Source: an uncultured Candidatus Peribacteria bacterium (GTDB taxonomy: Bacteria; Patescibacteriota; Gracilibacteria; BD1-5; UBA6164). Taken from it: a stretch of DNA of 64,000 nt. Position numbers and translations under genes: made by a program. The notes beneath the pieces were generated by a model. That model was not told the DNA's origin, did not search any database, and saw only the letters and a program-made list of their open reading frames with translations. Positions 1 to 64,000 of the stretch are shown here, in pieces; the first letter of the stretch is position 1, and every line of letters begins with the position of its first letter. The stretch spans positions 16,717 through 80,716 of the forward strand of contig CAZGOC010000002.1 in assembly GCA_964527685.1 (NCBI GenBank). The letters are read 5' to 3'.

Positions 1-1963
1 AGTTATATGTATAACAACTACTACTAGTTCAATTTACACTATTAGTATGAGTATAAATATTTCAAGCAAAATCTTTTACTTTTACAAGATTTGCAGATAT
101 AGTATAACTTGTGTTTGAAAAAGTGATTGTATTTCAAGCTTGCCAAGTTGCTCATCAATCAAAACTATAAGGAGTAGAATGCAATCATATAACATCACTA
201 GCTCAATTTATAGTAAAAGTTATACTATTACAAGCAGAACTTGAAGATGTTACACTTGTTATAGTAGGTGGTGTAACGTCAGAACAACTTCAAGAAACAG
301 AAGAAAAGTCTAAAGTCAAATTATTAGGTCAATTAGTACTTGTTATACAAGAAAAATTAGTTCTAGAAGCAGTAATATTTTGACAATTAGTTCAATAATC
401 AGCTTGAATAGAAAAATTTCAATTTGTGTCAGCAATAGTTGATTTACCACATCAAGTTATGGTAGCTCAGTTAGCATTAACTCAAAAAGTTCAACTAACA
501 GTATATGTATTTGTTATACAATTTGATAAACTTGTTGATCAAATTGGTGAAGAAGTTCATACAGGACAAGGTGTTTTTACTCAAGCAGTACAATAATTAT
601 TTACTTCACATTGTGTTTGAGTTGTTCTAGTTGTAGAAGTTCATCAAGAAGTATAATATCAAGCAGTTACAGTATTACAACTTGTTTGTCATGTTAGAGA
701 TTGGTATTTATCATCTCATCAACAAGCTGTTTGAGAAGTTTGTCATTGATTTGCTACATAATATCATGCTGAAGCAGCTATACAATCACTTCAATTCCAA
801 TAATATCATGCTTGACATATGAAATGACAAACTCATGATTGTACATCATGAAACCATGATATATTATATTGTTGAGTTCAATTTATTTGAGAATAAATAG
901 GTCTTGAATCTTTACATAAATTTTCATTACAAGTATTATTATTTGAGTCAAATACATAACTTCAACAATCTATACTTTCTGATGAATAAGTTAAATTATT
1001 ATTAATACAATTTGCAGTAATACTTGAAGTTCAGTTTGTTATAGATTTTGAGACTATTACTCAAGAACCATGTAATATAACTGGAATAGTATATCAACTA
1101 TAATTTCTTGAATTACAGTTTAGTGCAGTTTTTGGACTACAAGTATCAAATTTATAACTATCATCTCAACTTAAAACTCCATTAGTACATTTTCTAGTTA
1201 TTCAACTACAGGTTTCATTATATTCAACATTTTCTTTATTATATCAAATAGTTTGCCATCAACTTTGAATTAAAGTATTTCATAATACACATGAGTTTTG
1301 TATTATACTTATATTTGTTAATAAATCTGTTCAGGTTCAGGTAATAGTTCAACTATTTGAAGATTCATTTGTGAATTGAACTATATATGTTCATGTATTT
1401 GACAATAAATCTAAACTTCAAGTATTAAATAATTCTTGAATAGGTTTATTTGTTTCATTATCTAAAAATATTCAAACTTTATCTCAAATAGTGTATAGAT
1501 ATCTATCTAAATAATTACTATCACTAGCATAAGTTTTTAGAAAATTATATGAAAAAAAATATTGATTTTTTTCTTCTAGAAATGTTCATAATTGTTTTTT
1601 AGTTTTGTTTTTATTTAGAGTGTATAGGTATTTTGTATTATCTAGAGGATCAATTACTTCTTTGTTTATTCTTATTACTCTTTGAATATCTGTTCAAGCG
1701 TATCATTGATATCATACTCAGATGATGTCTGTATATTCATCTGGGGTTGGATAATTTCAAGATTGAACATTGTATATATCAAGTCAAGTTTCAATATTTT
1801 TTAGAGTTGTAACTCTTACTGAATCTCTTGCTCATTTTTTATAGTTTTGAAAAGATATGAATGATATTGTTGCTAGGATTGCTAGAATTGTGATAACAAC
1901 TATTAGTTCTACGAGGGTGAAACCTGATTTTATTTTTTTGTTAGAGATGTTTTGACAAAACAT
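1..1963 (-). CDS. Giant type IV pilin-like (pseudopilin) protein; its 3' end runs off the left edge of the window
   Basis: With TGA=Gly the minus-strand frame is open from nt 2 to 2023 (checked codon by codon; no TAA/TAG). N-terminus ..NKKIKSG/FTLVELIVVITILAILATISF is a class III prepilin signal (G|F cleavage site, Glu+5, hydrophobic helix). The remainder is Cys/Gly/Thr/Ser-rich. Start taken at the ATG at 1961-1963; alternative in-frame ATGs end at 1996 and 2023. Confidence 0.8.
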
Positions 1964-2069
1964 CTCTAACTCTACAGTTTTTTCTGATTTTTTCATAAAA
2001 AAATATTTAAAGTGTATAAACATTCAGGATTATATTTTTCTTTTTAGTTTTTACAAGTTTTTTTTGAAA

Positions 2070-2414
2070 TTATAATCCAAATTCATCTAGTAATCTACAA
2101 TTATTACAAATTCAAGCATAAATTTCTAATTTATCAATACTTTTTAAACTTTCAACTAAAACTTTTATTTGAGTTAAGTCATCATTTGAATCTTTTAATT
2201 CTAATGGATTTTTAATAACTTGATACAAATAATCCCTATATTCTCTTTTTTCTTTTATTCAAAAATTATTAAATTTATCCAAAAAACTTTGTTTTTTTTC
2301 ATTCTCTCATTTTGAATTTAATCTTTCTTCTAAATATAACTCTAAAGAAAGTTTTAACTCTTTTTTCATATTTTCAAATCAGCCAATTTGTTCATTTTCG
2401 ATTATTCCATTCAT
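2070..2414 (-). CDS. Hypothetical protein (114 aa)
   Basis: ATG (rc) at 2412-2414, TAA at 2070-2072, 115 codons counted, four in-frame TGA. MNGIIENEQIGGFENMKKELKLSLELYLEE.. No recognisable family. Confidence 0.5.
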
Positions 2415-2522
2415 ATCTTTAAATTAATATGTATAAATTAATACTATCAAATTTTATCATAAAAACTTTTTTTTTGCAAAAAATATATATACTTAAACTT
2501 AATAATTTTTAATATATCTTTT

Positions 2523-3215
2523 ATGTTTATAGTAATTGATGGAATTGATGGAAGTGGGAAGGGAACTCAAGTTGAGATTTTAAGAAAACATTTTGAATGA
2601 ATAGGGAAAAAAGTAAAAATACTTGATTATCCAAGGTATTGATATGCATCTTCTTTTATGGTTCAAAAATACCTCAATGGAGAATATGGAAAAACTCTTT
2701 CTCCAAAATTAGCATCTATTTTTTATGCTATTGATAGATATGATTCTATGATGGATAAAAAATATGTTGATTTTGATAGTTATGATTATATTATTTCCAA
2801 TCGTTATGTTTCAGCTAATATGATACATCAAACAGGGAAAATTGAGGATGATAATGAGGCAAAAGAATTTTTAGATTGGCTTTATGATTTGGAATACAAT
2901 ATTTTTTGAATACCAAAGCCAGATAAAGTAATTTTTTTAAATGTGACACCAGAAGTAAGTCAGAATCTTGTTTTAAAAAAAGAAAAAAGAGAATATTTAA
3001 AAGATGGGAAAAAAATGGATCTTCACGAAGAAGATATCAATCACTTACAAAATGCTTGGGATAAAGCTATGAAAGTAGTAGAAATGTATGATGATTGGGT
3101 AAAAATTGATTGTGTTGAAAATGGAGAAATTTTACCAATAGAAGAAATAACACAAAAGATATTATCTGAAATTTCTTCTGTGGAGAATAAAAATCAACTC
3201 ATTTTAGATATATAA
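2523..3215 (+). CDS. tmk: Thymidylate kinase
   Basis: MFIVIDGIDGSGKGTQVEILRKHFEG.. has the P-loop GIDGSGKGT. It joins track ORFs 2658-2909 and 2943-3215 (same frame) through in-frame TGA codons such as DYPRYG and NIFGIPKPD. Confidence 0.9.
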
Positions 3216-3219
3216 AATC

Positions 3220-3579
3220 ATGAAAAAATCTTGAGATAAAGCTGAAATTTTGGCTATTGAGTATTTAAAAAAGAACTCATATAAATTACTTGAAACAAAT
3301 TTTAAATTTTCTATATTTTGAGAAGTTGATTTGATTTGTGAAAAAGATGATCTCATAGTTTTTATAGAAGTAAAATATAGAAGTAGTGATAAATTTGGTA
3401 CTTGAGAGGAGAGTATAACAAAAAATAAACTTTTTAAGTTGCAAAAAACGATTGAATATCGGTGTGTTTGACATCATATTAATTTTGAGAAAATTCGTTT
3501 TGATGTTATTTCTATTACAAAAGGGGAGAAAAGTTATAAATTAATTCATTATAAAAATCAATCATTATGAAAACTATAA
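3220..3579 (+). CDS. YraN/UPF0102 family endonuclease
   Basis: MKKSGDKAEILAIEYLKKNSYKLLETNFK..GEVDLICEKDDLIVFIEVKYRSSDKFG matches the YraN signature (GE.DLI .. FVEVK.R). Its 3' end overlaps gpsA by 13 nt. Confidence 0.75.
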
Positions 3580-5098: not shown

Positions 5099-5167
5099 AA
5101 ATTTGTTTTACTTTTCTTTTTTTTCAGTAAAATCCACTTATTAAATTAAAAATAATTCTGCTTACTT

Positions 5168-5338
5168 ATGCCAAAAATAACATATTTTTTAAAAGATGAT
5201 GAAACTCTTGAAAAATTAAAAACTATCCTTGACGATAAAAATTTCAGTATCTCAAAATATTGAATAAAACAAAGTTATATAATTGAAAAATTAGAAAAAA
5301 ATCAAATATTCAGCTTTCATCAGCTTATAGGATTCTAG
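5168..5338 (+). CDS. Hypothetical small protein (56 aa)
   Basis: MPKITYFLKDDETLEKLKTILDDKNFSISKYGIKQSYIIEKLEKNQIFSFHQLIGF-TAG. Sits immediately upstream of the recombinase remnant. Confidence 0.3.
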
Positions 5339-5397
5339 CTTTTTATAATGATTACTATAAATCATATTTTAAAATTGAGGATGTGTTTAATAATAAA

Positions 5398-5855: not shown

Positions 5856-6033
5856 AACATATTAGTAAAAAAATAAAGACTTAAAAAGTCTGGGAATATG
5901 CAAAAATTTGTGTAAATAGAAATTTTGTATAAATATATATAGTAATTATAAGAAAAAATCTTTTAATTACTATTTTTTTTGTATTTATTTTTTCAGGTTA
6001 TGTTAAAGAACAATAAATAACCAATTAAATAAA

Positions 6034-6318: not shown

Positions 6319-6404
6319 TGAATGATTTGTACACTTAAATTTTAATTTGCAAATATTATTTTAAAAAATAAACTTAAGTTTGAGTTTATTTTTTTGTTTA
6401 TTTT

Positions 6405-9066: not shown

Positions 9067-12000
9067 CTACTCAACTATAAACTCCTCTCCCCTACTTCTA
9101 CCAAAAACTTCAGGATTATAAAACTCAAAAACTTGACTTGGTTTAATATTAAAATCTCAAGTGTGAGTTAATCTAATAGTATATGAATAATTATAAATTC
9201 AAGCTTGTAATTCTCTTACAAAACCAAAATACATATCATCTCTAAACTCTTTTCTATCTAAATATATATTTGTTGCAATATCTGTAACTTCTTTATTTTC
9301 AGTAGCAAGAGAAGTATTTACTATTTCACTTCAAGATGGAATAAATGATTCTAAAGCAACTTGATCTCTATCTTCATTTGTAACAACTTTATTGTAAACA
9401 AGTACCAAATCTCAAACTTTTCAAGTTTTAATTGGAGTTAAATATTCTACAACTTCTTTAGGATATTTTAACTCATCATAAATTATTTCTCAAGATAAAT
9501 ATTTAGAATATTCTTCATCTTTTAAAGCTTCAATTTTTTTGTATTCATTGAAAGAAAAATATTTTTTATCTACATAAAATCCCTCATCTCTAGCTTTTAA
9601 ATCAATAGTTGGAACAAAATACTTTAAATTTAAATCATAATAAATGCTTCAAGATCATTTTTTTGTAATATTAAAAATATTAATATTTTGTAAATCATTT
9701 GCCTCAATTGTTTTACTAAAGCTCTCAAATATATTTTCTTTATTAATTTTTTTTGTAATTATTTCTTCATTATTTAAGCTAAATCTAGTAAACATATCAG
9801 TATTTTTTAGTTCATTTGAAGCACTTAAATAAGTAGTTAAAGCTTTAATTATAAATAAATTATCATAAGTTGATCCAAAATTTCAATTTATTTTAGAAGA
9901 AGTTATAAATCTAATCATATTATCAACAATACTTTCACTATCTTTAAACTCTTTTAATCAAATATTTCAAATAATCTCTAAAAGAATCGTTGTATTATAA
10001 ACTCTTGAATTAGAACTTGCTGAAATAAAAGCTCATTTAGGACTAAAAATTAGTTCATTTGTTAAAATATTACTAACTTCTTTTACTCAATCACTTTTTA
10101 GATTATTTTTTTCTGTTTTAGTTAAAGAAGATATATTTAATAATTTTGAAGTTAATTTAGCTTTTTGCAATTTTGTTAATTTAGAAATATCTAAAGTTTT
10201 ATACATTTTAAATACTTCATAATCTTTGCTATCATAAGAATTTAAAGCTAAAAGTATTTCTTGCTTTAGTTCTAAACTTATACAATTATTAAAAACTTTT
10301 TCATTACAAATAGCTTTTTTATAAAATTCATTTTTTAAATAGTTTTTTGCATTATCTAACACTTTTTTATCTACATCGTATCAAAGTGATTTTATATCAG
10401 ACAATGAAGTTAAAATATAATTTGTAAGATGAATATCTGAAATTTTATATTTTGTATCATACCAATAAATAAATCATCAGTCAGTATTCCCAAATTTTTT
10501 AATTTCTATTAAATAATCTTTTATAGCTTCGTCTACAGATATTTCTTTATATCAAACATTATTGTCAATATATTTTTTTATCAGTTTTTTCTTTAAATCA
10601 AACTCTTTTCAACTCGTATTGTAAAGTTTTTTTATGTAAATATTTGGCATAATTGATGATGTTTTTTGTTCAGCATTTCAATAAGGATAATTAGCTAAAT
10701 AATCTATAGAATCAAATAAATAATTAAATAAAGTTCAAGCATAATTTATTGTTAATGTAGCATTTTTTTTATTAATATTTCATAAATTAATTTTTTCATC
10801 AAAACTAATATCACTTGTTTTTCAAACTGTAGAAGTATATTCTACAATTGTAGAATTATTAATTGGGATAATTTTTTTAATTGAATCAGATATAGTTTTG
10901 TCAGTTTTTGATTGTGCATTTATAATTATTGTAGAAATATCTTGAGATTTAAAATCATTTAATTTTTGTGTGTCAAAGCTAAATTCAACTTTAGAAGATT
11001 CTCAATTTTTTATAAAAATTGTTTTAGTATTAGATAATAATTTTCAATTTGTAGAAGAAATTTTTACAATAAATTCATCATCTTTCCCTGTTTTATTATA
11101 AATTACAGGAGTAAAAGTAATATTGTCATTTGTTGACAAAAATCTTGGTAAATTATCTTCTATCATAAGTGGATTTGTAGTCATTACAGTCAAGTAATTT
11201 ATTCAAATTTTATTATCATCAATAGTTGAAACTAAAGCTTCAAGCACCCAAGTAGTTAGATTATCAGGCATAACTGGTATAGTTATTATTGCTTTACCAG
11301 AAGTGTTTGTAGTAAAATCAGACAACCAAAAAGCTGTATCTTTAAAATTTCATCTTGGTTTTTTAGTTTCACCTCATTTAACTTGATCTCAAGCTCATCA
11401 TTTTTCTCAATCAGATACATCTTTTACTTCAAGTTTTTCTACTAAATATTTTAAATTTGAATAACTTATAACTCAAAGATATCTTTTCATATCATAAAAA
11501 AATGAGTATGGATTTTTTTTAGGATTTCATTTTAAAGCTAAAACACTTTCATCAACTACAGATAAACTTCAATTTGCATTTGGAACTACTTTTCAATTAT
11601 TATCAGTTACTTCAACTGTAACTTGCATTTTATCTCAAGGTTTATAGTTTTTTTTGTCAGTTAAAATAGTTACATTTAATTTTTTATAATCAGTTAACAC
11701 TTTTACAACAGATAATGCTCTTTTAAACACAGGAAGTGGATTATTTTTTTCACTTCAAATTAAATAAGCTTTTAAATAAACATTTGGATAGTGATTGTTT
11801 GTTAATTTTAATTCAATTTTATCTCAATAAGATTTGATATCATGCACAAAATAATCAAGTATTCAGTCATCTTTTTCAACAACAATCAAAGCTTTTCAAT
11901 TATTTATTGGAGATTTTAAAACAAAAGTTGCTGTTTCTCAAAGTTTGTATGTTATTTTATCTGACTCTAAATCAGTAACAGTATTATTATCATTTCACCA

Positions 12001-15000
12001 TGAAATATAGTCTTTTCATGCTACATAAACGATTTGACTTGAAGTAAAAGTTTTTTTATTTAATCATGTATAACTTACTTTTAGTTCATATTCTCAATCC
12101 CCTAAAGTTTTTGTGTTATATTGTACTTGTCATTTATCATCAGTTAATAAATTAAATGATTTTTCAAGTTTATCTTCTACAGCATATTCATTATAAAAAA
12201 CTCCATCAACTCAAAGTTTTTTAACTTGTTTGTATTCTTTTTTAATTACTTCAACTTTTATATTTTTATAAAAAACTGGTTTAGCATCATAGTCTAGTGT
12301 TATTGCTTGAAAATTAATTCCATCACTTTTAGAATTATAATAATTAGCTTTTAATCAAACATAAGAGTCAGTAGTATGAAGAACTTTAGAAACACTATTA
12401 TTTACTGTTTTTGAAGTATCTCTATCTTTTACTTCAAAATTAAATGTGTAAATTTTTTCTAAATTCTCAACTTTATCTCAAAAAGTATGTTCTAAATTAA
12501 ATTCTCAATTTTCATCAATTTTAAAATCTATATTTCAAGAATTTAATTTATCTCAGTAGTTACAATACCCCCAATAAATACAATCAAAATAATTACTTCA
12601 TTCACCAAATTGATAATCTGAATACTCCTTACCATCAAAAAAATAATTTTGACTTAATATAGAATAATTTCATGAAGTATTTATCATTTTTCAACCAAAA
12701 TAATATTTTGGAGTAATTTTAAAATTTACTTTTTCTCAAGATAACACATCATTTTTAGAGCTTTCAACCTCAACTTTAAAAGAAGGTTTTCTATAAGCCT
12801 CTATACTTAATCATCAATTTGTATAAACTTCAAAATCATATTCATTTCAAGGTATTTTATAAGTAAATTGAAATCTAAAATCTCATAAAGTAGAATCTTT
12901 TGGTATAACAAAACTTCAAGTAAAATTTGAATTTTTATCTACTTTAATATCAAGTGTTCTATAAGTTTGCCAATCCTCACCAATAAGTTTTAAAACTCAT
13001 GATGTTATTTTTGATTTTTTATATCAGTCAAAGTTAAATTCTCTTAAAAGTCATTTAATTTGTACTTCATCTCAAGGTCTATAAATAGGTCTATCTGAAT
13101 AAATATAAGCATAATTTTTTATAGAACTATCTTGTCCAGAAATATATTTAAAATCATAATTTGAAAAAAAATCATCTTGAGAAATAAGAGCAAAATATTT
13201 ATCATTTTTTACTAAAATATAACTAATTGCATTTAAATCAGAATCAATTACATAAACTTTTTTTGTTTTATCATAACTATATTTAACAGTTGTTTTTTTA
13301 TAATCAAAGTCATAAAATTCAAATTCTAAATTTGGAACTTCTATATTTTTTTCTAAATCTGTCACATAAGCAAGAGATTTATTTGATGCTTTTTCTAAAA
13401 ATACACTTAAATTAGTTCTAACTATTAAGTTTTTTGAATAATTTTTTGATTTTGATTTATCTAAAGAAGAATAAACTTCAATTCAAATATATTTAGATTT
13501 TGATTTATATCATAAAATATCATCTTCTAAATCAAATTTATTATGTGTAAGTTTCCAATACACAAGCTTTGTTTCTAGCTCTTTAGAAACTTTTTTTCAA
13601 CAAGAAAAATCTCCATATGGTGATTTTAAATATGTTTTATAATCCAAATCATTCATTTCACATACTTCCACCCAAACTTTTTTAGTATTAATAGTTTGAA
13701 TATTAACAACAACTGGAACTGAAGTTGGAAAAACATTTGTATTATTTGCAAATGATGTATAAACATATTTATCAGACTCTTTTAAATCAGTTGTTTTATA
13801 AGAATTTTTAAATATAGTTTTTTGAGTATTTCAATAAATATCTTTTAGTCAAGCAATATTTAAATCATATCACATATTTGGAGATAATCTTGTTTCTATA
13901 GCATATAAAATCTCTCAAGTAGAAGAGTTTGGACAATATCATTTTTCAAGTAATTTTTTATTTTTTTCTTCAAAACTTAAATCATTTAATGATTCTTCAA
14001 ATTGCCAATCCTCAATATATTGTCACTCTGAAACTGATTTTATAATTCAAGAATTTGAAAAAGTAATAAACTTTTCTCATCAAGAATAATACCCTAGATC
14101 CCAAGAGTTTAGTGATTCATTAGTTAATTCATCTAAAGTATTATTTACATATAAACAAGATTTTGAATAATCTAAAAATTTAAAATTTGTTATTTGTAAA
14201 TCTTTTGATGTTTTGTAAGTATAAACTATATCTTTAACTAAAGATATGTTTGCTTTTTTTAATAATATTAAACTATAACTTGAGTTATTTTCTAGTTTTT
14301 CTTTTAAATCCAAACGAATTTTTGTTTTATTTTCAAATATTTCTTTTTTTTGTTTTTCCTCTTTTTCTTCTTTTATATATGCTATATCAAAATCTATTTT
14401 TGCTCAAGTTTTATCATTTTTAAATAAAAACATTTCTTTATTTAAAGCAACTTCTTCAAAGAAATTTAAATTAAAAAATATATTATTATTAGGAATAAAT
14501 TCTAAATAAGTCATATTTTTTGTATCAATTAAAGTTCAAGAACTTGAATAGATATTTTTATAAATAAAAATATCAGATATTAAAGATGTAGTTTTAATAC
14601 TTTTAACAAATTCATTTTTAAGTGAAATATTTCAATATTTTGGCTTTAATCAAGCATTAATTTTTACCTTATAATCAGTGTCATAATTAAATTCTCAAGT
14701 TAAAGGTTTAATTAAAAAAGAATTTTCTAAATTTTTTACACTTTCAATTTTTATTTTAAATTCATCAAGTTTTGAATTTAAATTATTTGAGTTTGGAGTA
14801 AAAACTTTTAAATTTTTAGTTATTTCTTCAAGTGAAACTGGGTAATTAAAACTTAAGTTTATATAATTTTTTGGTGTAAAACTATCATTTAAATTTACTT
14901 GTAATTCAGGAGTTGTAAAACTTCAAGTAAAATCATTTTCTAGTTTATAATTCATTCAAGATGAATTTGTGATTTTATAATCATATTTTGTAGCTCAAGC

Positions 15001-15663
15001 AAATGATTTTTTAGGTATAAATTCTAAAACTGAAGTTGTAGTCCAACTACATTTTCAATCAATTTTTGGAGTAATTTCAAGTGGGCAAGAAAAACTATCT
15101 TTTGATTCTAAATCACTTAAACTCACCATTGGAAGACTAAAAAATACTGATAAGTTTTTATTTAAATCAACCAAATTATTTTCTGGCAAAACTTTAACAA
15201 TATTTGCTCAAGCAAAAGCTGAAACTATATAAATAATATCATTATCTAAAGTTTTTCAATTAAATGATTTTATTGATTTTGATAGTGTTATAGTATAATC
15301 TTGTCCTATTTTCAATTTATCACTAAGTTGATAACTTAAAGTATTACCATCTTTTAGTTTTAAAATTCCTGGTACTTTGGGATTAATTTTAAAACTATTT
15401 TTTATTATACTATTTTCATCTAATTTTTTAGAAAATGAAATATCTATTGATGCAGTATTGTATGGAATTTTTTTTATTCAAAAATCAAAATTTCATCCAC
15501 TAACTTCAAATATAGAAAAATTTTGTGATATTAAATTATTAACTTTATCTTTATTTAAATAATATATTCAAGAAAAAATAATTATAAAAATAACTCAAAA
15601 ACAAATATTAAAAATAGCTTTATTTTTAACATAAAGTAAAAGTATACTTTGTTTTAATTTCAT
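9067..15663 (-). CDS. Bacterial alpha-2-macroglobulin family protein (2198 aa), membrane anchored, thioester Cys absent
   Basis: ATG (rc) at 15661-15663 and TAG at 9067-9069 are in the same frame (6597 nt). Track ORFs 10087-10362, 13072-13365 and 14080-14313 are all in that frame. Motifs: FKDTAFW, MPDNLTTWVLEAL, and LANYPYGNAEQKTSSIMP (canonical PYGCxEQ with Cys replaced by Asn). N-terminal hydrophobic anchor. I did not check every codon across the 6.6 kb. Confidence 0.85.
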
Positions 15664-15764
15664 AAAATTAGTCATAATTTAGTATATTATTAATAATAAT
15701 CTCTAATTATTATATATTTTTATATAAAATTACAAATAAAATAGCTATTTAAAAAAAATCAAAA

Positions 15765-15790
15765 AAAAAAGTAGAAAAATCTACTTTTTT
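15765..15790 (-). terminator. Terminator after pilT
   Basis: aaaaaagtag-aaaaat-ctactttttt directly 3' of the pilT stop. The stem is short and AT-rich. Confidence 0.5.
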
Positions 15791-16833
15791 TACATATCAT
15801 CCATAAAATAATTTATATAATCTTCTTCTTTTACAATTCATTTGTCTCTCAAATTATCAGCATAATTTTTCATAGTAATCATTCATTCTGATTGTCACAT
15901 TTCAATTGCATTGTTTATTTGAACCAAATCTCAAGCACGAATTAAATTTCTTATTCAAGGAGTCATCATCATTACTTCAAATATTCAAACTCTTCATCAT
16001 CATATTTTTGGTATAAGTCTTTGAGATAAAACTCAAAATAATATATCTCATAATTTATATCTAAATGAATGTTGTAATTCTGGATGGAAAAAATTTACAA
16101 GTCTTGTTATAGTTTGCACAGAACCTGCAGTATGCAATGTTGAAATAACAAGGTGTCAAGTTTCAGCAAGTTCTACTGCAGCTTCTACAGTTTCTTTATC
16201 TCTCATCTCTCATACCATAACAATATCTGGGTCTTCTCTCATTGCAGCTCTTAGTGCTGATGAAAATGAACGAGTATCTTTTCAAACTTCTCTTTGAGAA
16301 AAAATAGATAAATTATCTTTAAAAATAAACTCTGTTGGATCTTCAATAGTAATTATATGTTCTCTTCTTGTTTTATTTATAGCATCAAGTACTGAAATCA
16401 TTGAAGTTGATTTTCAAGATCAAGTTGGTCAAGTGACAAGTATAAGTCATCATTTTGCTTTTGTAAATTTTGAAACTCATCTAGGTAACCCTAATTCTTC
16501 AATACTTTTTGGTTCTGAAGCTATTTTTCTCAAAACAAATGCTATTTTTCATAGTTTATAAAAAGCATTTACTCTAAAAGGAGTTCAGTCAGTATGAATA
16601 TAAGCAAAATCAGCATCTCTTTTCTCAAAAAATTCTTTTACTGCTTCTTTATTGTCATTTAACAATTCAAGTAAAATTTGTTTTGCTTTTAGTGTATCAA
16701 GAGGAGTTCATGATACTTTTCAAAGTTCTCCATGAACTCTAAATCATATATTTTCTCATTCTGACATATGTATATCAGATGCTCAAATCTTTATACAATG
16801 ATCTAATATTGGTCGTACAGTTAAATTTGCCAT
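15790..16833 (-). CDS. pilT: Type IV pilus retraction ATPase PilT
   Basis: 347 aa: ..IKIGASDIHM.., Walker A LILVTGPTGSGKSTS (three of the Gly are TGA, about 16406-16437), IITIEDPTEF, ALRAAMREDPDIVMVGEMRD, TGHLVISTLHT. Confidence 0.9.
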
Positions 16834-17633: not shown

Positions 17634-17781
17634 ATATAAAATAAATAAAAATATAAAATACAAAAGTATTGTATCATATAAAAAAAATATTTGCAAAAAA
17701 AAAGCAAAAAAATATAATCTTGACTGCAAATAATATAAATATATTATTTTTACTTTATAAAATAATTAAAAAATATAGATT

Positions 17782-18111: not shown

Positions 18112-18120
18112 TTTTTTAAA

Positions 18121-18997: not shown

Positions 18998-19606
18998 ATG
19001 GAAGAATTAAATTATTACAATATTGCTAAAATAGACTCTCCTGCTCCTTTATTTGATTTACCAGCTTATGATCCAATAAAAGATGATGAAACTAGAGTTA
19101 ATTTAGAAGATTTAAAAGGAAAATGGACAGTATTATTTTACTATCCAGCTGATTTTACTTTTGTTTGTCCAACTGAATTAAAAGATATGGCGGATGCTAA
19201 AGCAAAATTTGATGAATTAGGAGTAACTGTACTTTCTGCTTCAACTGATACTGTATTTTCTCATAGAGCTTGGGTTAAACATGAAAAATTAATGCAAAAT
19301 TTCCCATATACTATGCTAGCAGATCATGCTTTAAATGTTGCTGATATGTATAATATACTTGATGAAGAGACTTGAATAGCTTGAAGATGAACTTTTATAA
19401 TAGATCCAGAATTAATTATTAGATGAATAGAAGTTACTTCATGACCTTTATGAAGAAATAGTGATGAATTAATTAGAAAAATTGAGGCTTTACAATTTAT
19501 GAATAAAAATCCTTGAACTGCTTGTCCTGCAAAATGGGCTATTTGAGCAAAAACTCTAAATCCTTCAATAAAAATAGCTTGAGAAGTTTATGAAGCTTTA
19601 AATTAA
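18998..19606 (+). CDS. ahpC: Typical 2-Cys peroxiredoxin (AhpC/Prx1 family)
   Basis: Track ORF 18998-19375 extended through TGA codons to 202 aa. Peroxidatic site FYYPADFTFVCPTE; resolving Cys in ..NPGTACPAKW... Confidence 0.9.
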
Positions 19607-21401: not shown

Positions 21402-21433
21402 AAAGAGAGATTAGCTTAAAACTAATCTCTTTT
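21402..21433. terminator. Bidirectional terminator (secD / murC)
   Basis: aaagagagattag-cttaaaa-ctaatctcttttt. The murC stop lies inside the right arm. Confidence 0.75.
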
Positions 21434-22762
21434 TACTTCTATATCATATCTTAAATTATCTATATCTCAAGCTCCTTGAAGTATAAATAAATATTTTCAA
21501 GGATTATTTATATCTAGTTTTTTTATAATTTCTAAAGTATTATCAAGTCCATTTCAAAAAATCTTATTTTTTAAATTTATATAATTTAAAAAACTCTCTC
21601 AATTTATTTTTTGCATATCTTCCAAAGTATCTCTTGATTTATATATATTTGGAACTATAAGTAAATCACAATTTAAAAATGAGTCCTTAAAATCATTTAA
21701 TAACTCTAAAGTCCTATTGTATTGATGAGGCTGAAAAATACATACTATTTCCCTATTTATATACTTATTTTTTAAAGCTTCTAGGTTTAATTTTATTTCT
21801 GTTGGATGATGTCCATAATCACTCATTAAAATATTTCAGTTCAATGTTTCTCAAATTATTTCAGATCTTCTCCATATACCATTATATTTTGTTAATGAAT
21901 TAATAATTTCATCATCACTTAATCAAATTATTTTTCAAGTTGTATAAGCGATTTTAGAATCAAAAAGTATATGTTTTCAAGGAATTTTTAAAGTAAAATC
22001 AGGTATATTATATTTTTTTATTAAATCATTGTCTATAATTTCATAATAATCATTATAAACAATCACATAATTTATATTTTTTCTTTTTCCCACCAATTTT
22101 AAACTATTATTATCATATCAATTAATTATTACATATCATCAAGTTTTAATATTATTTATAAAATCTTTAAATGCATCTATATAATCTTCTAAATCTTTAT
22201 AATAATCTAGGTGATCTAAATCAATATTTGTAATAATTCAAATATACGGAGTATATTTTAGAAAACTTCTTTTATATTCACAAGCCTCAATTGAAAAGTA
22301 TTCACTATCTGAGAAATAAGAGTTTTTCCCACCAAATTCTTTTAACAAACTTCAAACTATTGTATTGATTTTTAGTTTGCTATTTTGCATTAAAATAGAA
22401 ATCATAGAAGTTGTAGTTGATTTTCAATGACTTCAAGAAATAGCAATTAATTTTTTATCATTTGCAATTAAAGCAAGTGCTTCTGGATAAGTTAGAGTTT
22501 TTATATTTAGTTTTAATGCTTTTTGTAATTCTTTGTTATCCTTTGGAATAGCCTCAGTATAAATAACTAAATCTATATTATGGCTTACAAAATCACTCCT
22601 TTCTCAAATAAATATATCTATTTTTTCTGCTCTTAAGTTTTCTATTAACTCACTATTTGTTAAATCACTTCAATAAACTTCCCATCAAATATGGTTATAA
22701 TATCTTGCTATTCAAGAAACTCATATTCATCATATTCATATTATATATATTTTTTTATTCAT
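21422..22762 (-). CDS. murC: UDP-N-acetylmuramate--L-alanine ligase
   Basis: 446 aa: [45 protein letters not shown]. In frame with track ORF 21599-21826. Confidence 0.9.
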
Positions 22763-23295
22763 TATTTTAAAAAGTTAGTTTTTAATAAATTATTTACTTC
22801 TTTAAATATATCACTATTTAATTTTATCATTTCATCTTCATTAAATTTAGATAAAACCCAATCACTTAAATCCCATTTTGTATCATATCATATTCATATT
22901 TTTATTCTTTTAAAATCATCTCAAATCTTATTTACAATATCTTTTACTCAGTTTTGTCATCAAGCAGAGCCTTTTTCCCTATATCTTATTTTTCAAAAAT
23001 CCATAGATATATCATCAAAAATTACAATAATATCTTCTTTTTTTATTTTATAAAAACTCATAAGTTTTAAAACTGACTCTCCAGATAAATTCATAAAAGT
23101 TTGTGGTTTTACAAATAAATATTTTTCTCATAAGAGATCTTCCCCCAAAATTTCTGCATTGAATTTTTGTTCAAACTCAAAGTCTTTTTGTATATTTAAA
23201 TCACTTTTTAACCAATCTAAATATAAAAACCCTACATTATGTCTAGTAGTTTTATATTTATCTCAAGGATTTCATAGTCAAATTATTAATTTCAT
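22762..23295 (-). CDS. pth: Peptidyl-tRNA hydrolase
   Basis: 177 aa: [48 protein letters not shown]. Its stop overlaps the murC ATG (TAATG). Confidence 0.9.
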
Positions 23296-24278: not shown

Positions 24279-25046
24279 TTAAATTATTATTTCAGGATAA
24301 AGTGGTTTTACAACTATAGTATGTTCAAATTGTGCTCCTATATTTCAGTCTGCCATATATAAAGGAAATCATCATTTATCAATTATTTTTCAAGTTGTAA
24401 GTCAAACTATAGGTTCAATAGCTAAAGTCATATTTTCTTTTAATATTTCTCACTTTCAAGCTTGTCAAAAATTTGGAATATATGGTTTTTCATGTAAATT
24501 ATATCATATTGAATGACCTGTTAAATCTTTAACTATATGGTAACCATGGCTTTCAACATGAGTTTGTATTGCATGTCATATATCTCAAACTCTATTTCAA
24601 ACAATTGCTTTTGCAATTCATTTATACAAAGCTTCTTCAACAACTTTTAAAAATTTTACTTTTTCTAAATCTTTATAATCTCAAATAATCATTGAAAAAG
24701 CTCGATCTGTATTTAATCAATGTCTTTTATCTTTAACTCAAAAATCAAATTTTACTACATCTCCATCTTGAAAAATCATATTTTTTGTAGGAATTCCATG
24801 TACTACACAATCATTTACACTTATACAAATATTTCAAGGAAAATTATAAATTCATTTAAATCAACATAAAACATTGTATTTATTACAGATATCTTCACAT
24901 AATTTATTTACATCCATTGTATTAGTTCAAGGTTTTACCATTTTTTTTATTTCTTCAAAAACCTCTTTATGAACTAAAGCAAGTTCTTTCATTACACTTA
25001 TTTCTTTAGCATTTTTAATTAAAACTTCTTTTTTTACTTTTGACAT
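24279..25046 (-). CDS. map: Type I methionine aminopeptidase
   Basis: 255 aa: ..CISVNDCVVHGIP.., DGDVVKFDFGV, ..GHSIGYNLHEKP.., LAIEP, FEHTIVV. A hairpin aaatggaaa-tttt-ttccattt follows at about 24257-24280. Confidence 0.9.
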
Positions 25047-27931: not shown

Positions 27932-30479
27932 ATTATTTTATAATTATTTCATTTTTTGAAATTGCTAAACTTAGTGTATCATAAGTTTTTGATGAAATCA
28001 AGTTTTGTGCAATTTTATCTTCTATAGAGTCAACTACATATCTTTTAATTTCTCTTGCTCAATATTCTGGATTAAATGTAGACTTTGCTATAAAGTTAAT
28101 TACTTTTTTATCATAAACTAAATCTATATTTTTAACTTTTTTTAATCTATGTTTTAAATCATCTAAATTTAATTCAACTATTTTTGAAATAGATTTTTTA
28201 TCAAGAGGTTTAAAAACAACTACTTTATCTATTCTATTTAAAAACTCTGGAGAGAAATAATCTCCTAAATTTTCTTTAATTGACTTTTCTATTTTATCAA
28301 AATCTTTTGATAAATTATCTTTTTTTCCATCTTCTAAGTCAAATCATATCTTACTTGCTTCTTTGTTAAACTCTTCTTGTCATATATTTGAAGTCATTAT
28401 AATAATTGTATTTTTAAAGTTTATTTTTCTTCATTTATTATCAGTCAAACTTCACTCATCAAGTATTTGTAATAATAAGTTATAAACTTCAAAATCTCAT
28501 TTTTCAATCTCGTCAAAAAGTATTATACTATATGGTTTTTTTCTAACTTCTTTTGTTAAAAATCCTCACTCTTCATATCAAACATATCAAGCATTTGCTC
28601 AAATAAGTTTTGAAACTCATGTTTTATCAGAATATTCTGACATATCAATTTTTATTAAATTATCTTCATTTCAATAAAATTCTCTTGCTAAAACTTTTAC
28701 TGTTTCAGTTTTCCCCACTCAAGTTGGTCATAAAAATAAAAAGCTTCAAAGTGGTTTGTTTGGATTTCAAATTCAAACTTTACTTCTAATAATTGCTGAA
28801 GTTATAGCCTTTATCCCGTCTTCTTGTCAGATAATTTTTGACGAAATAACTTTTTCTAATTTCTTTAATCTTTCAATTTCTGTTTTTTCTAAATCTTGAG
28901 TTGGTATCTTTGTAGTCATTGATAGGATTTTTTGTATATCTTTTTTTGTAATATTGTATCTTTTATCTTTAGGAATTGAAAAACTTTTTTTATGATTAAT
29001 TAATTCTTCTTCAAGTTTTTTTACTTTTTCTTTTAATAAAGATGCCTTTTTATATTGTTGAGAAATAACAAATGATTCTATTTGTTTATTTTGTTCAACT
29101 ATTTTTTCTTTTAAAGCATTTATTTTTGTTTCATCTCATTTATATGTCATTGATTTTAAAGAACAAGCTTCATCTATTAAATCAATTGCTTTATCTGGTA
29201 AAAATCTATCTGTAATATAACGAATTGATAAATCAACTGCTTCTTTTACAGCTTCAGGTGTAATATTTAAATTATGATAATTTTCAAATGATTCTTTTAA
29301 TCAACTTATTATTTCTATAGCATCTTCATATTTTGGTTCTTCAACTACTATTTTTTGAAATCTTCTTTCTAAAGCAGAGTCTTTTTCTATATATTTTTCA
29401 TATTCATTTAAAGTAGTAGCTCAAATAACTCTTATTTTACCTCTTCACATTGCAGGTTTTAATATATTTGATGCATCTAGTGCTCATTCTGCTCATCAAG
29501 CTCAAATAATTGTATGAATTTCATCAATAAATAAAATAACATCATTTTCTACTTTTGAAGCTTCTTCAATAATTTGTTTAATTCTTGTCTCAAACTCTCA
29601 TCTATATTTTGTTCAAGCTACTAAAGAAGTCATATCAAGAGCTAAAATCTTTTTATCTTTCATTGAAAAAGGCACTTTTTGAGCAACAATTAATTGTGCA
29701 AGTCACTCAATAATTGCTGTTTTTCAAACTCATGGCTCTCAAACTAAAACAGGATTATTTTTTGTTTTTCTATTTAAAATAGACAAAAGTCTTTCTATTT
29801 CCATATCTCTTCAAATCACTTTATCAAGTTTTTTTTCTCTTGCTTCTTTTGTTAAATCAGTAGTAAAAAAATCAAGTATTGGGGTTTTACTATCTTCCTT
29901 TTTTTGTTGTTGATTATTATCAAATGGAGTTATATCTCAAGATTCCATTCATTCAAATAAATTATCCAAAGCTCAAATGATTTTATCTAATGATTCATCA
30001 AAATTATCACCTTGTTTAAATCATAATCAATCAATAACTCAAGCTTCATTCATTGCAAATAATTGTTTTTCAATATCTATTGGATTTATTCAAATATACA
30101 ATAAACTTTTAGAAAACCATCAATTATTTTTAATCAAAGCAAGTATAAAGTCTTCTAAAGAAGCTTTTGGTTTAGTAAAGTTTGAAGCTATTTTTACAGA
30201 GAGTAAAATAGTTTCTTTTAAAGAATTACTCATTCAAGAATAAACTCAGTTTCTTTTTTCTTTTTTTAAAAAGATTTCTTCTATATTTTCTAACTCTAAA
30301 AATAATTTTTCATTTAATCAAAAAATATCAAACAACTCTCTTAATGCTCAAGTTGAATTTTTTAATATTTCAAAAAATATATCTTTTTCATTTAAATCCT
30401 TTAATCAAAGTTCTTTAACTTTATTTTCAGTATTTATTAATACTCTTTTATATCAATCAGAAAAATTGTTATATATCAT
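27932..30479 (-). CDS. clpC: ClpC/ClpB-type AAA+ chaperone ATPase with an apparent +1 frame disruption near 28678
   Basis: N-terminal part (frame of ATG 30477-30479): [33 protein letters not shown]-like [37 protein letters not shown]. That frame stops at 28659-28661. The conserved continuation [47 protein letters not shown].. is one frame over and ends at TAA 27932-27934. Confidence 0.8.
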
Positions 30480-43157: not shown

Positions 43158-43916
43158 ATGTCTATTTTTGAATTAAATATTTTTTGAATTACTATTGCTC
43201 CAAGTTATTATTGACTTATGTATGTGATTTGATTTATATCTTGATATTATTATATTTTTAAAAAAAATATTTTATCAAAAGAAAAACTTGATGATTTATT
43301 TTTTTTAGTTGCTCTTTGAGTTATAATGTGAGGTAGAGTTTGATATATATTATTTTATGATTTTTCTTATTATTTATCAAACCCTATTGCTATTTTTGAA
43401 GTTTGGAAATGATGAATGAGCTTTCATTGAGGTTTTTTATGAGTGGTTTTAGCTGTAATATATTTTGCTTATAAAAATAAAATTAGTTTTTTTAAAATCA
43501 TTGATGAACTTGCTGTAATAGTGCCAGTTTGAATATGAGCTTGAAGAATATGAAATTATTTAAATAAAGAATTACTTTGATTTTCAAACTATACTTGATT
43601 TTTAGCAGTTGAAAAAAAATGATTATCTTACTTCCCTTCTCCTTTACTTGAAGCTTTTTTAGAGTGATTTATTTTGTTTATAGCTTTATATTTTATAAAT
43701 AAAAATAAAAAATTTTATTGAAAAACAAGTGCTTACTTTTTAATACTTTATTCAAGTTTTAGAATATTTGTAGAAGTATTTTTTAGGACTCCTGACCCTC
43801 AAATATGATATATATTTTGATTTTTAACTATGTGAATTATTTTAAGTATACCGATGTTTGGACTTTGAATTATAATATTATTTAAAAATAATAGAAATGA
43901 AATTATCAATAAGTAA
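43158..43916 (+). CDS. lgt: Prolipoprotein diacylglyceryl transferase
   Basis: 252 aa: VWKGGMSFHGGFLGV, GIGAGRIGNYLNKELLG. Confidence 0.85.
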
Positions 43917-51620: not shown

Positions 51621-51707
51621 GCCCTGATGGTGGAATTGGTAGACACGTGGGACTCAAAATCCCATTCCTTCAACGGAGTGCGAGTTCGATTCTCGCTTGG
51701 GGCACCA
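51621..51707 (+). tRNA. tRNA-Leu (anticodon CAA), encoded CCA
   Basis: The cloverleaf was folded by hand. Acceptor GCCCTGA/TTGGGGC; anticodon stem TGGGA/TCCCA with loop CTCAAAA; long variable arm; T-arm GCGAG-TTCGATT-CTCGC; 3' ACCA. It is a local GC-rich island. Confidence 0.9.
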
Positions 51708-58351: not shown

Positions 58352-59355
58352 TATTTTCTTAAATAATAAAATAAATTAAATAATACATAAATTCACATTA
58401 GATAAAAAAGTATATAAATAAATTCTTTATAATATGGTGTTAAAAATTCATATACTTTAACTTTTAATCAATTTTTTGAAAGTAAATCAAGTTTATTAAA
58501 AATATCTTTAAAAGTCTCTGTAGTATTGGCTTTATAGTATTTCCCACCTGTCAAACTTGCAATAGCTTTTAGATTTTCTTCATCAATTCCCCCAACTTCA
58601 ACTTTTTGATTTCAATAAATAGTTTTAAAATTTACATAAGTATCTTTATTTCATCATATTCAAACAGTATAGACTTTTATATTTTTAGTGTTTATATATT
58701 TTATTGCTTCAAGTGGATCAATTCATCTATTTGCTTCTCAATCAGTAAATAATATTATAACTTTTTCTCTTTTGCCATCATCATTAAATAAATTAGCTCA
58801 ATAAAGTAATCAATCTCAAATAGCTGTTCATTGTAAGTGTTGATAATTTTGATTTATAGTTTTTATTGAAATATCCTTTATATAATTAGTTATAAAATCA
58901 TAATCAAAAGTCAAAGGCACTCAAGTAAATGGGGTTCAAGAAAATAAAACAAGCCCTACTCTATCAGTTTTTATACTAGAAGTAAAGTTTGAAATAACTT
59001 CTTTTGCTACTTCAAGTCTATTTGGTTTTATATCTTCAGCTAACATACTATATGATAAATCTAAAACAATTGCAATATCTATTCAATTTTTAATATTTTC
59101 TGTTTGTTTATTTTTAATCATAGGATTTGCAACTAGTCGGGAAAAAGTTATTATAATCAAGAAAATCAATAAAATATTAATAAAAAAATATTTTCTTGAT
59201 CTTCAAAAAATACTTTCAATATCTTTTATAAATTGAAATTTTATTCAATTATCTTTACTTGATTTATAGTATAAAAAAAGCAATATCATTCATATAGTAA
59301 ATGATAAAAATCAAAGTCAATAAGATGTAAAAACAATATCTTTTATATTTTCCAT
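58351..59355 (-). CDS. batA: VWA-domain membrane protein (BatA-like)
   Basis: 334 aa: IAIVLDLSYSM (MIDAS), PNRLEVAKE, RVGLVLFSG, GTAIGDGL, VIILFTDGEANRG, KVYTVGIG, IDEENLKAIASLTGGKYYKA, and a C-terminal TM. Its stop overlaps the batB ATG (TAATG). Confidence 0.85.
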
Positions 59356-60306: not shown

Positions 60307-61497
60307 TTATTTTAATATATCTTTTAACTTTATATTATCATAACTTTTTATTAAATCAATTACTTCTAAAATAGAAATTAAAGATTGTTTTAAATTAAGT
60401 AAATCTCTTGGAGTTGCTCTATCTAAAGATAATCTATTTAAAATAATTTCTATATCACTTACATATGAAAGTTTTTCTCTAACTTTATTTAATAAAATTT
60501 TATCTTTTAAAAATATTTCTATAAAATCTTGTCTTTGTTTAATTTTTTTTATATCATAAAGTGGAGTTAGTAGTGATTTTTTTAAAAATCTTTTTCCCAT
60601 TGGGGTTTTTGAATTATTTAAAACTCAAAACAAAGTTCAAACTGTATCACTTCAAGTTAAAAAGTTGTATACTAAATCAAGATTTTTTATAGTTTGATTA
60701 TCAAGTTTTAAATAATTTAAATCATTGTATAATCAAATATGTTTCAAAATACTTAAAGAGTTTTTTTGATTTAAGGTTAAATAATTTAATAATAAAGCTC
60801 AGGCTTCAATTCATAAGCTATTTTTTTCTATTCAAAATCAAGACAAATCTTTTACTTTAAAATGACTTTTAAGTAAAGCTTCACTATCCCAAGAATTTTC
60901 AAAATAATATATATTTAAACTATATTTTTTTTGTAGAATTTGTTTTAAATCATCAAATCAAAATAATTTTTTATCTAAAATAACTTCTTTAGGATTTAGT
61001 TTAAATAATTCTTTTTCAAGTTTCTCAAAATTGTCAAATTCTGCAATTTGCCACTTATTTGACAATAAATCTAAAATTGAAAATCAATATTTTTTAGTTT
61101 TTTCTAAATAAGTAATTGAAATAATTGTATTATTATCAAAATTATCAAAATTATCTCATTCTAAATTTAAAGTTGCTGGAGTTACTACTCTTTGTACTTC
61201 CCTTTTTATAATTCATTTTAGTTTTGGGTCTGAAACTTGCTCAACAATAGCTACTTTATATCAAGCATTTACTAAAATTGGTAGGTATTTATCTTTAGCA
61301 TGATATGGAATTCAAGCAAGTTTTTCAGGATTTAAAGCATTTTTATTTCTTGAAGTAATATTTATTCACAAAACTTTGTGAGCTATTTCAGCATCTTCTC
61401 AAAACATTTCATAAAAATCTCACATACGAAAAAATATAACAGAATCATTATATTCTTTTTTTATATCATAATATTGTGACATCGCTGGAGTTAACAT
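60307..61497 (-). CDS. mutS: MutS N-terminal half only (domains I-III; no clamp or ATPase domains)
   Basis: 396 aa: [71 protein letters not shown].. (mismatch-binding domain) through ..TPMGKRFLKKSLLTPL..LNRLSLDRATPRDLLNLKQSL... It then ends at TAA 60307-60309, and holA starts 7 nt later. Confidence 0.8.
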
Positions 61498-63340: not shown

Positions 63341-63491
63341 AATTTTTAAAAGTTAAAAAGTATTAATTTTATTTTAACTTATTTTTTTATTTGGCAAGTT
63401 TTTTACATTTTTTTTAAAAAACTTTGCAAAAATATATTTTTTCATATAATGTTTGCAATAATTTTACTTTTTTAAATTTTTAATAGAAAAT

Positions 63492-63824
63492 ATGGCAAAT
63501 AGTCACGGACTTTCGTCAAGAGTAGTAAAAAAACAAGCTGCTGCTAGAAAATTAGCAAAAAACAAAAAATCTTCATACCAAGTTTATATGGGGAATGAAA
63601 ATCCTCAAACTAGAAAAAACATGTCTTATAAAGCAAGAACTCACTATTTTGAAAATAAACAAAATTTTCCAAAGAAAAAACTTGCAAGTAAAAATATTCA
63701 AACACTAATTGAGCAATGAATTATTGATGAAAGAGGATTTTTTAAAACTTGAAAGAAAAAAAATTTTATAACTAAATCAATGGTTGACTCTAAAGGTTTA
63801 GATTTTTATGGAATGCCTAGATAA
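63492..63824 (+). CDS. Small basic hypothetical protein (110 aa)
   Basis: Track ORF 63492-63719 extended through two TGA codons to TAA 63822-63824. K/R-rich. No family recognised. Confidence 0.5.
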
Positions 63825-63829
63825 TTTTT

Positions 63830-63857
63830 AAAATCTTGACTTAAAACTCAAGATTTT
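63830..63857 (+). terminator. Terminator
   Basis: aaaatcttga-cttaaaac-tcaagatttt followed by a T run. Confidence 0.7.
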
Positions 63858-63877
63858 TTTATTTATAATTAAATATT

Positions 63878-64000
63878 ATGCAAAGATTTTATTTAAATAC
63901 TGATATTTTGTGAAATGATGAATTTATTTTAAAAGATGAAGAAATAATTTATCAACTAAATAAAGTTTTAAGAGCAACACTTTGAGATGAAGTAATTTTT
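63878..64000 (+). CDS. rsmE: 16S rRNA (uracil1498-N3)-methyltransferase RsmE, 5' part (runs off the window)
   Basis: MQRFYLNTDILGNDEFILKDEEIIYQLNKVLRATLGDEVIF matches the RsmE N-terminus (M.RFf...l......l..ee..H...VLR...Gd.i.lf). Confidence 0.65.

Follow-up and report, generated by a model that had tools for sequence, protein, structure and literature searches.

Decoding of UGA as glycine under NCBI translation table 25 is said to have been described in Gracilibacteria/BD1-5 by Wrighton in 2012 and Rinke in 2013, and in Absconditabacteria (SR1) reportedly by Campbell in 2013. For Gracilibacteria/BD1-5, table 25 is documented by Hanke 2014 (PMC4032931), with validation of UGA=Gly in BD1-5 by proteomics, and by Sieber 2019 (PMC6851277), with prfB undetected in every available BD1-5 genome. 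Gracilibacteria with the reassignment possess tRNA-Gly(UCA) and have no RF2 (PMC8629427), and in Absconditabacteria CGA/CGG have changed to tryptophan (Shulgina & Eddy 2021, PMC8629427).

The stretch of 64,000 nucleotides analysed here, called the window, is almost certainly part of the chromosome of an uncultured bacterium of Gracilibacteria/BD1-5 type (GTDB class JAEDAM01), very rich in AT (21% GC), that uses table 25, with UGA read as glycine, UAA and UAG as the only stops and UGG as tryptophan. These assignments and a small AT-rich genome of CPR type are shared with Gracilibacteria/BD1-5, and the UGA=Gly recoding with high TGA use is shared with Absconditabacteria. The GC content is lower than that of a closed BD1-5 genome (28.9%) and of the bin of Hanke (33%; PMC4032931), and is at the low end of the 0.21-0.53 span given for the clade (PMC8629427). 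The recoding is already known for the clade, and the window is a clear but ordinary instance of it, and what stands out is the degree. The features used below are the following.

1..64000, no strand: whole window, 54 genes with TGA as sense (Gly), 1064 in-frame TGA versus 212 GGN, GC 21.4%
2523..3215, plus strand: tmk (g03), Pfam Thymidylate_kin, Gly codons 10 GGN versus 3 TGA
9067..15675, minus strand: bacterial alpha-2-macroglobulin gene (g09), 2202 aa, 92 TGA, PYG-NAEQ at 10666-10686
15790..16833, minus strand: pilT (g10), Walker A GPTGSGKS with all 3 Gly as TGA
16408-16431, minus strand: PilT Walker A, codons TGA CCA ACT TGA TCT TGA AAA TCA
18998..19606, plus strand: ahpC/peroxiredoxin gene (g14), TGG on conserved Trp at 19124-19126, 19271-19273 and 19535-19537
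21422..22762, minus strand: murC (g16), GIGGIGVSG at 22712-22738 with 5 TGA
22762..23295, minus strand: pth (g17), GLGNPG at 23263-23280
24279..25046, minus strand: map (MetAP, g19), 20 TGA, CGA at 24702-24704 (aa 115)
27933..30479, minus strand: clpC (g22), 47 TGA
28707-28730, minus strand: ClpC Walker A GPTGVGKT, TGA at glycines
29718-29741, minus strand: ClpC Walker A GEPGVGKT, TGA at glycines
43158..43916, plus strand: lgt (g34), GGMSFHGG at 43410-43433, codons TGA TGA ... TGA GGT
51621..51707, plus strand: tRNA-Leu(CAA), sole tRNA in the window, by ARAGORN and Rfam RF00005

The effect of the code on the open reading frames was analysed over the whole window. Under table 11 no ORF in the 64 kb exceeds 149 aa, and stop-to-stop there is no reading frame of 300 aa. 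When TGA was taken as sense, 29 ORFs of at least 300 aa appeared, the longest with 2203 aa; in the controls, reading TAG as sense gave none and reading TAA as sense gave 7 (longest 475 aa). A greedy selection of non-overlapping ORFs, with TAA/TAG as the only stops, produced 54 genes that cover 92% of the window. TAA ends 49 of them, TAG ends 4, and one continues past the window edge, so that UAA and UAG are kept as sole stops in the 53 complete genes. The first-pass annotation had proposed that the standard code leaves only short ORFs, that about 55 contiguous genes appear with TGA as sense and that TAA/TAG terminate them, and the counts agree with all of this. Gene lengths are those of the homologues, and C-terminal run-on is absent in PilT, ClpC and the other aligned genes. 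Most of the 54 genes gave coherent Pfam domains even with TGA masked as X. The alpha-2-macroglobulin gene contains bMG10, MG2, A2M_BRD, A2M and TED, and the housekeeping content comprises SecD/SecF, MurC, Pth, MetAP, RecG, UppS, Lgt, LspA, ribosomal protein S15, NDK, ClpC, PBP1 and HolA. The window also carries g18, a gene of the integrase family, and remnants of transposases and recombinases.

The amino acid at TGA was determined by aligning seven of the proteins with standard-code homologues of solved structure from the PDB. Among 115 TGA sites, 84 faced Gly and 1 faced Trp. The first six alignments gave 78/106 on Gly against a background of 7.6% (binomial p = 1.5e-63, a value that covers these 106 sites only), and AhpC, the seventh, raised the total. 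By protein, TGA was on Gly at 16/27 sites in PilT (A. aeolicus PilT, 2ewv), 27/33 aligned sites in ClpC (S. aureus ClpC, 6em8), 11/11 in Pth (S. aureus Pth, 4yly), 13/20 in MetAP (3tb5) and 6/9 in AhpC (1we0 and 1yep). Glycines encoded by GGN were on Gly in 18/24 cases, the same rate as TGA, and because of this the approximately one quarter of TGA sites on other residues is attributed to ordinary divergence. In the per-codon tally of the same alignments nearly all adequately sampled codons matched best their standard amino acid; the exception was GTA (n=38), mostly on Ile instead of Val, and no larger departure was seen. It was also possible to locate every motif for which TGA at glycines had been cited (PilT, both of ClpC, Lgt, MurC, Pth and A2M), the PilT Walker A falling within the interval given earlier, 16406-16437. 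The claim that TGA is found on invariant glycines and not on tryptophans thus stands, and the contrary pattern named with it was not seen.

The Pfam scores followed the same direction, G > X > W, in every protein tested (PilT, Lgt, MurC and SecD). For LGT the bits were 190.2 with G, 126.5 with X and 103.2 with W; for T2SSE in PilT they were 169.9 with G versus 127.9 with W; and in MurC the order was maintained in all 3 Mur ligase domains. With TGA as Gly the composition is normal (Gly 6.5%, Trp 0.4%). TGG remains tryptophan, as had been stated: in AhpC 3/3 of the W residues face conserved Trp, and in the relatives TGG is opposite TGG in 26/28 cases. In codon-level alignments with the orthologues of 9 GTDB relatives, the partner of the TGA of the window was TGA in 461 cases, a GGN codon in 57 and TGG in 2, and the GGA, GGT and GGG of the window faced mainly TGA; in evolution TGA changes places with GGN codons, not with TGG. 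Four independent lines agree and, at the level of sequence, support the decoding of TGA as Gly, not as Trp or stop, although the same data are compatible with low-level ambiguous decoding of UGA, which may occur.

Regarding the lineage, the closest GTDB representative was 'Candidatus Gracilibacteria bacterium isolate BROCD037', with 89.8% nucleotide identity, and NCBI labels the orthologues Candidatus Gracilibacteria or Altimarinota, with Gly in the annotation of a sister MAG. Ten loci matched the ClpC motif in its three-TGA form. Nine of them are AT-rich (GC 22-32%), with titles that name Gracilibacteria in 4 cases and Peribacteria, Patescibacteria or uncultured bacterium in the others; the tenth, from Verrucomicrobiales with 62% GC, appears to match by chance. 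By similarity, the window falls within the Gracilibacteria/Absconditabacteria clade (GTDB JAEDAM01), and the lineage of this type suggested by the first-pass annotation is in line with the nearest named relatives, which are Candidatus Gracilibacteria MAGs.

From what is established for the clade, UGA would have its own tRNA-Gly, with a UCA anticodon, and release factor 2 would have been lost, leaving RF1 alone to terminate at UAA/UAG. ARAGORN found no tRNA-Gly(UCA) in the window, where tRNA-Leu(CAA) is the only tRNA, nor in the flanks of the same strain, of which 10 kb on the right side and 2.4 kb on the left were scanned; the right flank carries only tRNA-Gln(UUG), and the other scanned loci of the same strain and of relatives gave 0 tRNA. 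The Rfam search of the window returned nothing besides the tRNA. No protein with an RF-1/PCRF domain, as expected of prfB, was detected among the 54 genes of the window or the genes called in approximately 12 kb of flanks.

Considering that the window has low GC (21%) and that TGA is plainly sense, it could be read with table 4, in which TGA is tryptophan, as in Mycoplasmatales and reduced insect endosymbionts, which are also very AT-rich and where RF2 loss is likewise the expected mechanism. In fact, a public protein collection has automated calls of these genes with W: in this collection of 15 billion sequences we found 8/8 of the Trp versions tested and 0/5 of the Gly versions. This reading is extremely improbable. 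The amino acid is Gly and not Trp (84 vs 1 of 115 sites), table 4 would mean 5.8% Trp and 1.1% Gly, placing W instead of G costs from 4 to 87 bits per Pfam domain, the relatives exchange TGA with GGN and not with TGG, and they belong to Gracilibacteria, a lineage unrelated to Mycoplasmatota. The Trp forms of the proteins of this organism in the collection are a table 4 miscall. Such mistranslations are already circulating, with distorting effects on homology searches, the calling of domains, predicted structures and the models trained on them. The choice of code is decisive for annotation, since table 11 yields no usable genes from the contig and table 4 puts a wrong residue, Trp for Gly, at every sixteenth to twentieth position.

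A decaying or misassembled sequence, in which massive pseudogenisation or sequencing error under the standard code has left TGA as true stops, would explain that table 11 opens nothing above 149 aa. Its probability is practically negligible, since TGA is restricted to conserved Gly positions, the same sites are kept in 9 GTDB relatives (the 461 pairs of TGA with TGA), separate assemblies of the strain match one another at 99.4-100%, and the genes bounded by TAA/TAG are normal in length and domain architecture. The window could also belong to a phage or mobile element with a recoded stop codon instead of a cellular chromosome; recoded phages of Gracilibacteria exist (PMC10746230), and the integrase-family g18 and the transposase and recombinase remnants point in that direction. 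This origin is very improbable as well, given that the gene content is housekeeping (SecD/SecF, MurC, ClpC, ribosomal protein S15, etc.), that no structural genes of phage type were found in the window, that the same proteins are present on an NCBI contig of 185,805 bp and that MAG contigs, the longest of 132 kb, share its synteny.

A variant of the table 25 reading concerns CGA, and perhaps CGG, which in the low-GC clade would no longer be arginine and would be unassigned or reassigned in addition to table 25. CGA is nearly extinct, with 3 per 10,000 codons, and the window holds 6 CGA and 1 CGG. Codon-level comparisons, which for clpC covered orthologues from 9 GTDB loci and 21 metagenome loci, showed that 71-90% of the votes for partners of AGA, AGG and CGT go to Arg or Lys (81-95% in a smaller set), versus an Arg/Lys majority at only 2/16 CGA sites in the low-GC group. 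Opposite the CGA in MetAP, four relatives have GCA/GCT/TCA (Ala or Ser) and one more has CGA, and the CGA in g20 faces TCA/TTA/GCA. In code-25 loci with GC of at least 27%, CGA pairs with TGG at 29/41 sites, which reproduces the published change of CGA to Trp in Absconditabacteria (PMC8629427). In contrast to that change, a Trp majority was seen at 0/16 CGA sites in the low-GC clade of the window. Against a loss of the arginine meaning stand the small number of codons in the window, the origin of the low-GC CGA sites, mostly from one MAG (L011) and in variable columns, the lack of a consistent amino acid among the partners, and 120 ClpC homologues of the clade, whose conserved non-basic columns show no surplus of 'R'. 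The pattern could also stem from young mutations of Gly to Arg or Gln to Arg that are slightly deleterious. We consider the departure from arginine fairly unlikely. The more specific proposal, that CGA (perhaps CGG) in the extremely AT-rich Gracilibacteria of this clade is unassigned or has been taken by another tRNA, with partners mostly Ala, Ser or Gly, unlike the Absconditabacteria CGA/CGG-to-Trp change, appears quite unlikely. The seven CGA/CGG codons behave unlike Arg codons, and 'code 25' may describe them incompletely; if the CGA reading were true, the code of the window would be 'table 25 plus'. An assignment of CGA to Ala, derived from sites in L011 at which the Hsp100 consensus is restored and from the Ala of relatives at the MetAP site, was rejected, as conserved small-residue columns are not enriched in 'R' among the 120 ClpC homologues.

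The degree of TGA use can be related to base composition. TGA makes up 83% of Gly codons (approximately 5 of 6 glycines) and 5.4% of all codons, while the GGN box is reduced to 1% of codons. TGA is now the main glycine codon, and the total glycine content is normal. At fourfold-degenerate sites G+C is only 3.3%, and the TGA:GGA ratio of 11.8 is near the TTA:CTA ratio of 9.1. In a set of 29 code-25 loci the sum of TGA and GGN stays at 5-7% of codons, and the TGA share drops with rising GC (Spearman -0.78, p = 5e-7), which is what AT mutation pressure predicts; the GC of the window is below that of the closed BD1-5 genome and the bin of Hanke, and the TGA share is accordingly high. In a glycine family of five codons, a G-to-T change turns GGA into TGA without altering the amino acid, so that GGA drains into TGA as CTA does into TTA, and AT-biased mutation is the best explanation for the dominance of TGA. 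The window is in this respect a clean case of how far a captured stop codon goes under AT pressure. An outlier in Gly codon use is tmk, where GGN prevails (binomial p = 2.8e-6 versus the window-wide TGA share), and one gene, g24, is without any TGA.

Under the standard code (table 11), no ORF of at least 150 aa was listed by the ORF tool in the 64-kb window (GC 21.4%), and in stop-to-stop translation 300 aa was not reached in any frame. Taking TGA as sense, 29 open frames of at least 300 aa were obtained, the longest of 2203 aa; as controls, TAG as sense gave none and TAA as sense gave 7, the longest of 475 aa. A greedy non-overlapping set with TAA and TAG as the only stops contained 54 genes covering 92% of the window, in agreement with the first-pass annotation, which had described short standard-code ORFs resolving into about 55 genes and TAA and TAG as terminators: 49 genes end in TAA and 4 in TAG, one being open at the left edge. 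Pfam families were coherent for most of the 54 genes even with TGA masked as X, and the matched genes were housekeeping ones (Tmk, GpsA, PBP1, PilT, YbaB, ABC ATPase, AhpC, SecD, SecF, MurC, Pth, XerC/D-like, MetAP, ClpC, MoxR, DUF58, S15, SPFH, LspA, Lgt, rhomboid, 5'-3' exonuclease, RecG, UppS, NDK, MatE, VWA proteins, HolA, and MutS). A YkuD transpeptidase and a bacterial alpha-2-macroglobulin were recognised by Pfam only after reading TGA as glycine.

TGA was masked as X in seven proteins (PilT, ClpC, Pth, MetAP, UppS, NDK, and AhpC), and these were aligned to experimental structures from standard-code organisms. The 115 aligned TGA codons were opposite Gly in 84 cases, Ala in 10, and Trp in 1; for the first 106 sites the Gly excess over a 7.6% background had p = 1.5e-63. 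GGN codons were opposite Gly at the same rate (18/24), and therefore the non-Gly quarter of TGA sites reflects ordinary divergence. In the per-codon tally of these alignments, the standard amino acid was the best match for nearly every codon with enough sites; the exception was GTA (n = 38), mostly opposite Ile rather than Val, with no stronger departure. TGG fell on a conserved Trp at all three of its codons in AhpC. The Pfam score of Lgt was 190 bits with Gly, 127 masked, and 103 with Trp at TGA; the MurC and SecD domains ranked likewise, and PilT scored 170 bits with Gly versus 128 with Trp. With TGA as Gly, glycine makes up 6.5% and tryptophan 0.4% of residues, while with TGA as Trp tryptophan would reach 5.8%.

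We scanned GTDB, one genome per species, with the ClpC Walker A motif carrying TGA at all three glycines, and ten loci matched. Nine were AT-rich (GC 22-32%, seven of them at 22-25%), four titled Candidatus Gracilibacteria and the rest Peribacteria, Patescibacteria, or uncultured bacterium; the tenth, from Verrucomicrobiales at 62% GC, looks like a chance match. The nearest relative was isolate BROCD037 (89.8% nucleotide identity across 4.6 kb), and the same strain was present in the Logan assemblies of SRR11845619 (100% identity) and SRR11845634 (99.4%). In orthologue codon alignments, window TGA codons had TGA opposite them in 461 cases, GGN in 57, and TGG in 2; the GGA, GGT, and GGG codons of the window mostly had TGA as their partner, and TGG was opposite TGG in 26 of 28 cases. 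TGA thus exchanges with GGN and hardly with TGG, so it is synonymous with the former and not the latter. On all these grounds the first-pass proposals hold: TGA encodes glycine and not tryptophan, TGG remains Trp, the lineage is of Gracilibacteria type, and the cited glycine motifs are all in place with TGA at the glycines. The assignment is right, with strong support, and the code is one already described for this clade.

Reading TGA as Trp (table 4) is contradicted by the structure alignments, composition, and Pfam scores, and is excluded. In a public collection of 15 billion sequences, exact look-ups showed the proteins of this organism solely as table 4 gene calls that place Trp at TGA (Trp versions 8/8, Gly versions 0/5; protein ids P0001, P0006-P0008, P0012, P0013, P0017, P0018, and P0026). 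The NCBI orthologue from BROCD037, MBW7955066.1, has Gly, and re-called Logan and ENA members of its cluster have Trp. Pseudogenisation or sequencing error is also excluded, since different lineages share TGA at Gly positions and separately made assemblies match exactly or almost so. Nor is this a recoded phage: the gene content is housekeeping, and a 185,805-bp contig carries the same proteins. The practical value of the glycine reading is that it fixes the translation table and cautions against table 4 miscalls in public data.

Of the 19,701 codons, 1064 (5.4%) are TGA and 212 are GGN; TGA thus supplies 83% of glycine codons, and the window clearly exemplifies how a captured stop codon can become the majority codon of an amino acid. 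Heavy TGA use by code-25 bacteria is already noted in PMC10746230 (citing Campbell 2013). G+C at fourfold-degenerate sites was 3.3%, and the TGA:GGA ratio (11.8) was similar to the analogous TTA:CTA ratio (9.1). With 21 metagenome loci added, found by the same ClpC pattern, TGA share fell as GC rose (Spearman -0.78, p = 5e-7, 29 loci), TGA plus GGN staying at 5-7% of codons. This is the prediction of AT-biased mutation acting on a five-codon glycine family; the window's GC lies inside the clade range of 0.21-0.53 (PMC8629427). The leftover GGN pool is skewed to GGG (52/212, 25%, versus 1.7% G at fourfold sites), which fits GGA draining into TGA; GGG taking the same route would become TGG (Trp). 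The TGA share is even across genes except tmk (2523-3215, plus strand; 10 GGN versus 3 TGA, p = 2.8e-6; P-loop all GGN; GC3 15% versus about 8%) and the small gene g54 (63492-63824, plus strand; 5 GGN versus 2 TGA, p = 0.002); in these two genes, a recent transfer from a donor with the standard code may be responsible, or else some other constraint.

The window has hardly any CGA or CGG codons left, 7 of 19,701 in all:

3460-3462, CGG, in gene g04
16813-16815, CGA
24702-24704, CGA
25657-25659, CGA
32542-32544, CGA
41826-41828, CGA
59137-59139, CGA

Those with orthologue coverage were opposite Ala, Ser, or Leu and never Arg, Lys, or Trp; at the MetAP site, four relatives have Ala or Ser where the window has CGA, and a fifth also has CGA. 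The CGA-to-Trp change published for Absconditabacteria (PMC8629427) was reproduced in code-25 loci of at least 27% GC (L010, L013, L015, and others), with CGA opposite TGG at 29 of 41 sites, whereas in the low-GC clade of the window, where CGA has all but disappeared, a small sample mostly from one MAG had CGA opposite Trp at 0 of 16 sites and opposite Arg or Lys at just 2. For AGA, AGG, and CGT, Arg or Lys was opposite in 71-90% of votes. In 120 ClpC homologues of the clade, "R" was not overrepresented where conserved columns are non-basic.

Codon meaning, stops, and lineage are established from the window and its relatives. By published work on the clade (PMC8629427, PMC6851277), UGA would be read by a tRNA-Gly(UCA) and RF2 would have been lost; Gly at UGA was confirmed by proteomics in a BD1-5 bacterium (PMC4032931). 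The only tRNA in the window is tRNA-Leu(CAA) and, in the 10 kb to its right in the same strain, tRNA-Gln(UUG); the remaining scanned loci of the strain and relatives had none. The window and called flank genes, a small part of a genome of about 1 Mb, held no release-factor domain.

Several genes are truncated or remnant:

5514-5852, plus strand, serine-recombinase fragment
6037-6360, minus strand, Mutator/IS256-type transposase C-terminal remnant
44422-45672, minus strand, truncated PolA-like protein: 5'-3' exonuclease and partial 3'-5' exonuclease domain, no polymerase domain
60307-61497, minus strand, truncated MutS, 396 aa: domains I-III only, no ATPase domain

The 1.3 kb at 5099-6404 has no intact gene, an rve integrase lies just left of the window in the same strain, and holA directly follows the truncated MutS. 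The alpha-2-macroglobulin has PYG-NAEQ at its thioester site, without the cysteine, and is therefore probably, by this motif, a non-thioester form:

9067-15675, minus strand, bacterial alpha-2-macroglobulin, 2202 aa

A pilus/secretion-related gene set is formed by:

2-2023, minus strand, pilin-like protein with N-terminal methylation motif (850 aa, complete in the left-flank locus L040)
15790-16833, minus strand, PilT
30625-32862, plus strand, large Gly-rich secreted protein, 745 aa, no recognised domains
35302-39048, plus strand, large Gly-rich secreted protein, 1248 aa, 102 TGA, no recognised domains
16936-18234 of the right-flank locus L035, additional T2SSE ATPase, immediately beyond the right edge of the window

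A Bat/aerotolerance-like set is divided between two window sites:

33333-35131 and 57371-59355, minus strand, MoxR ATPase, DUF58 protein, and two membrane VWA proteins
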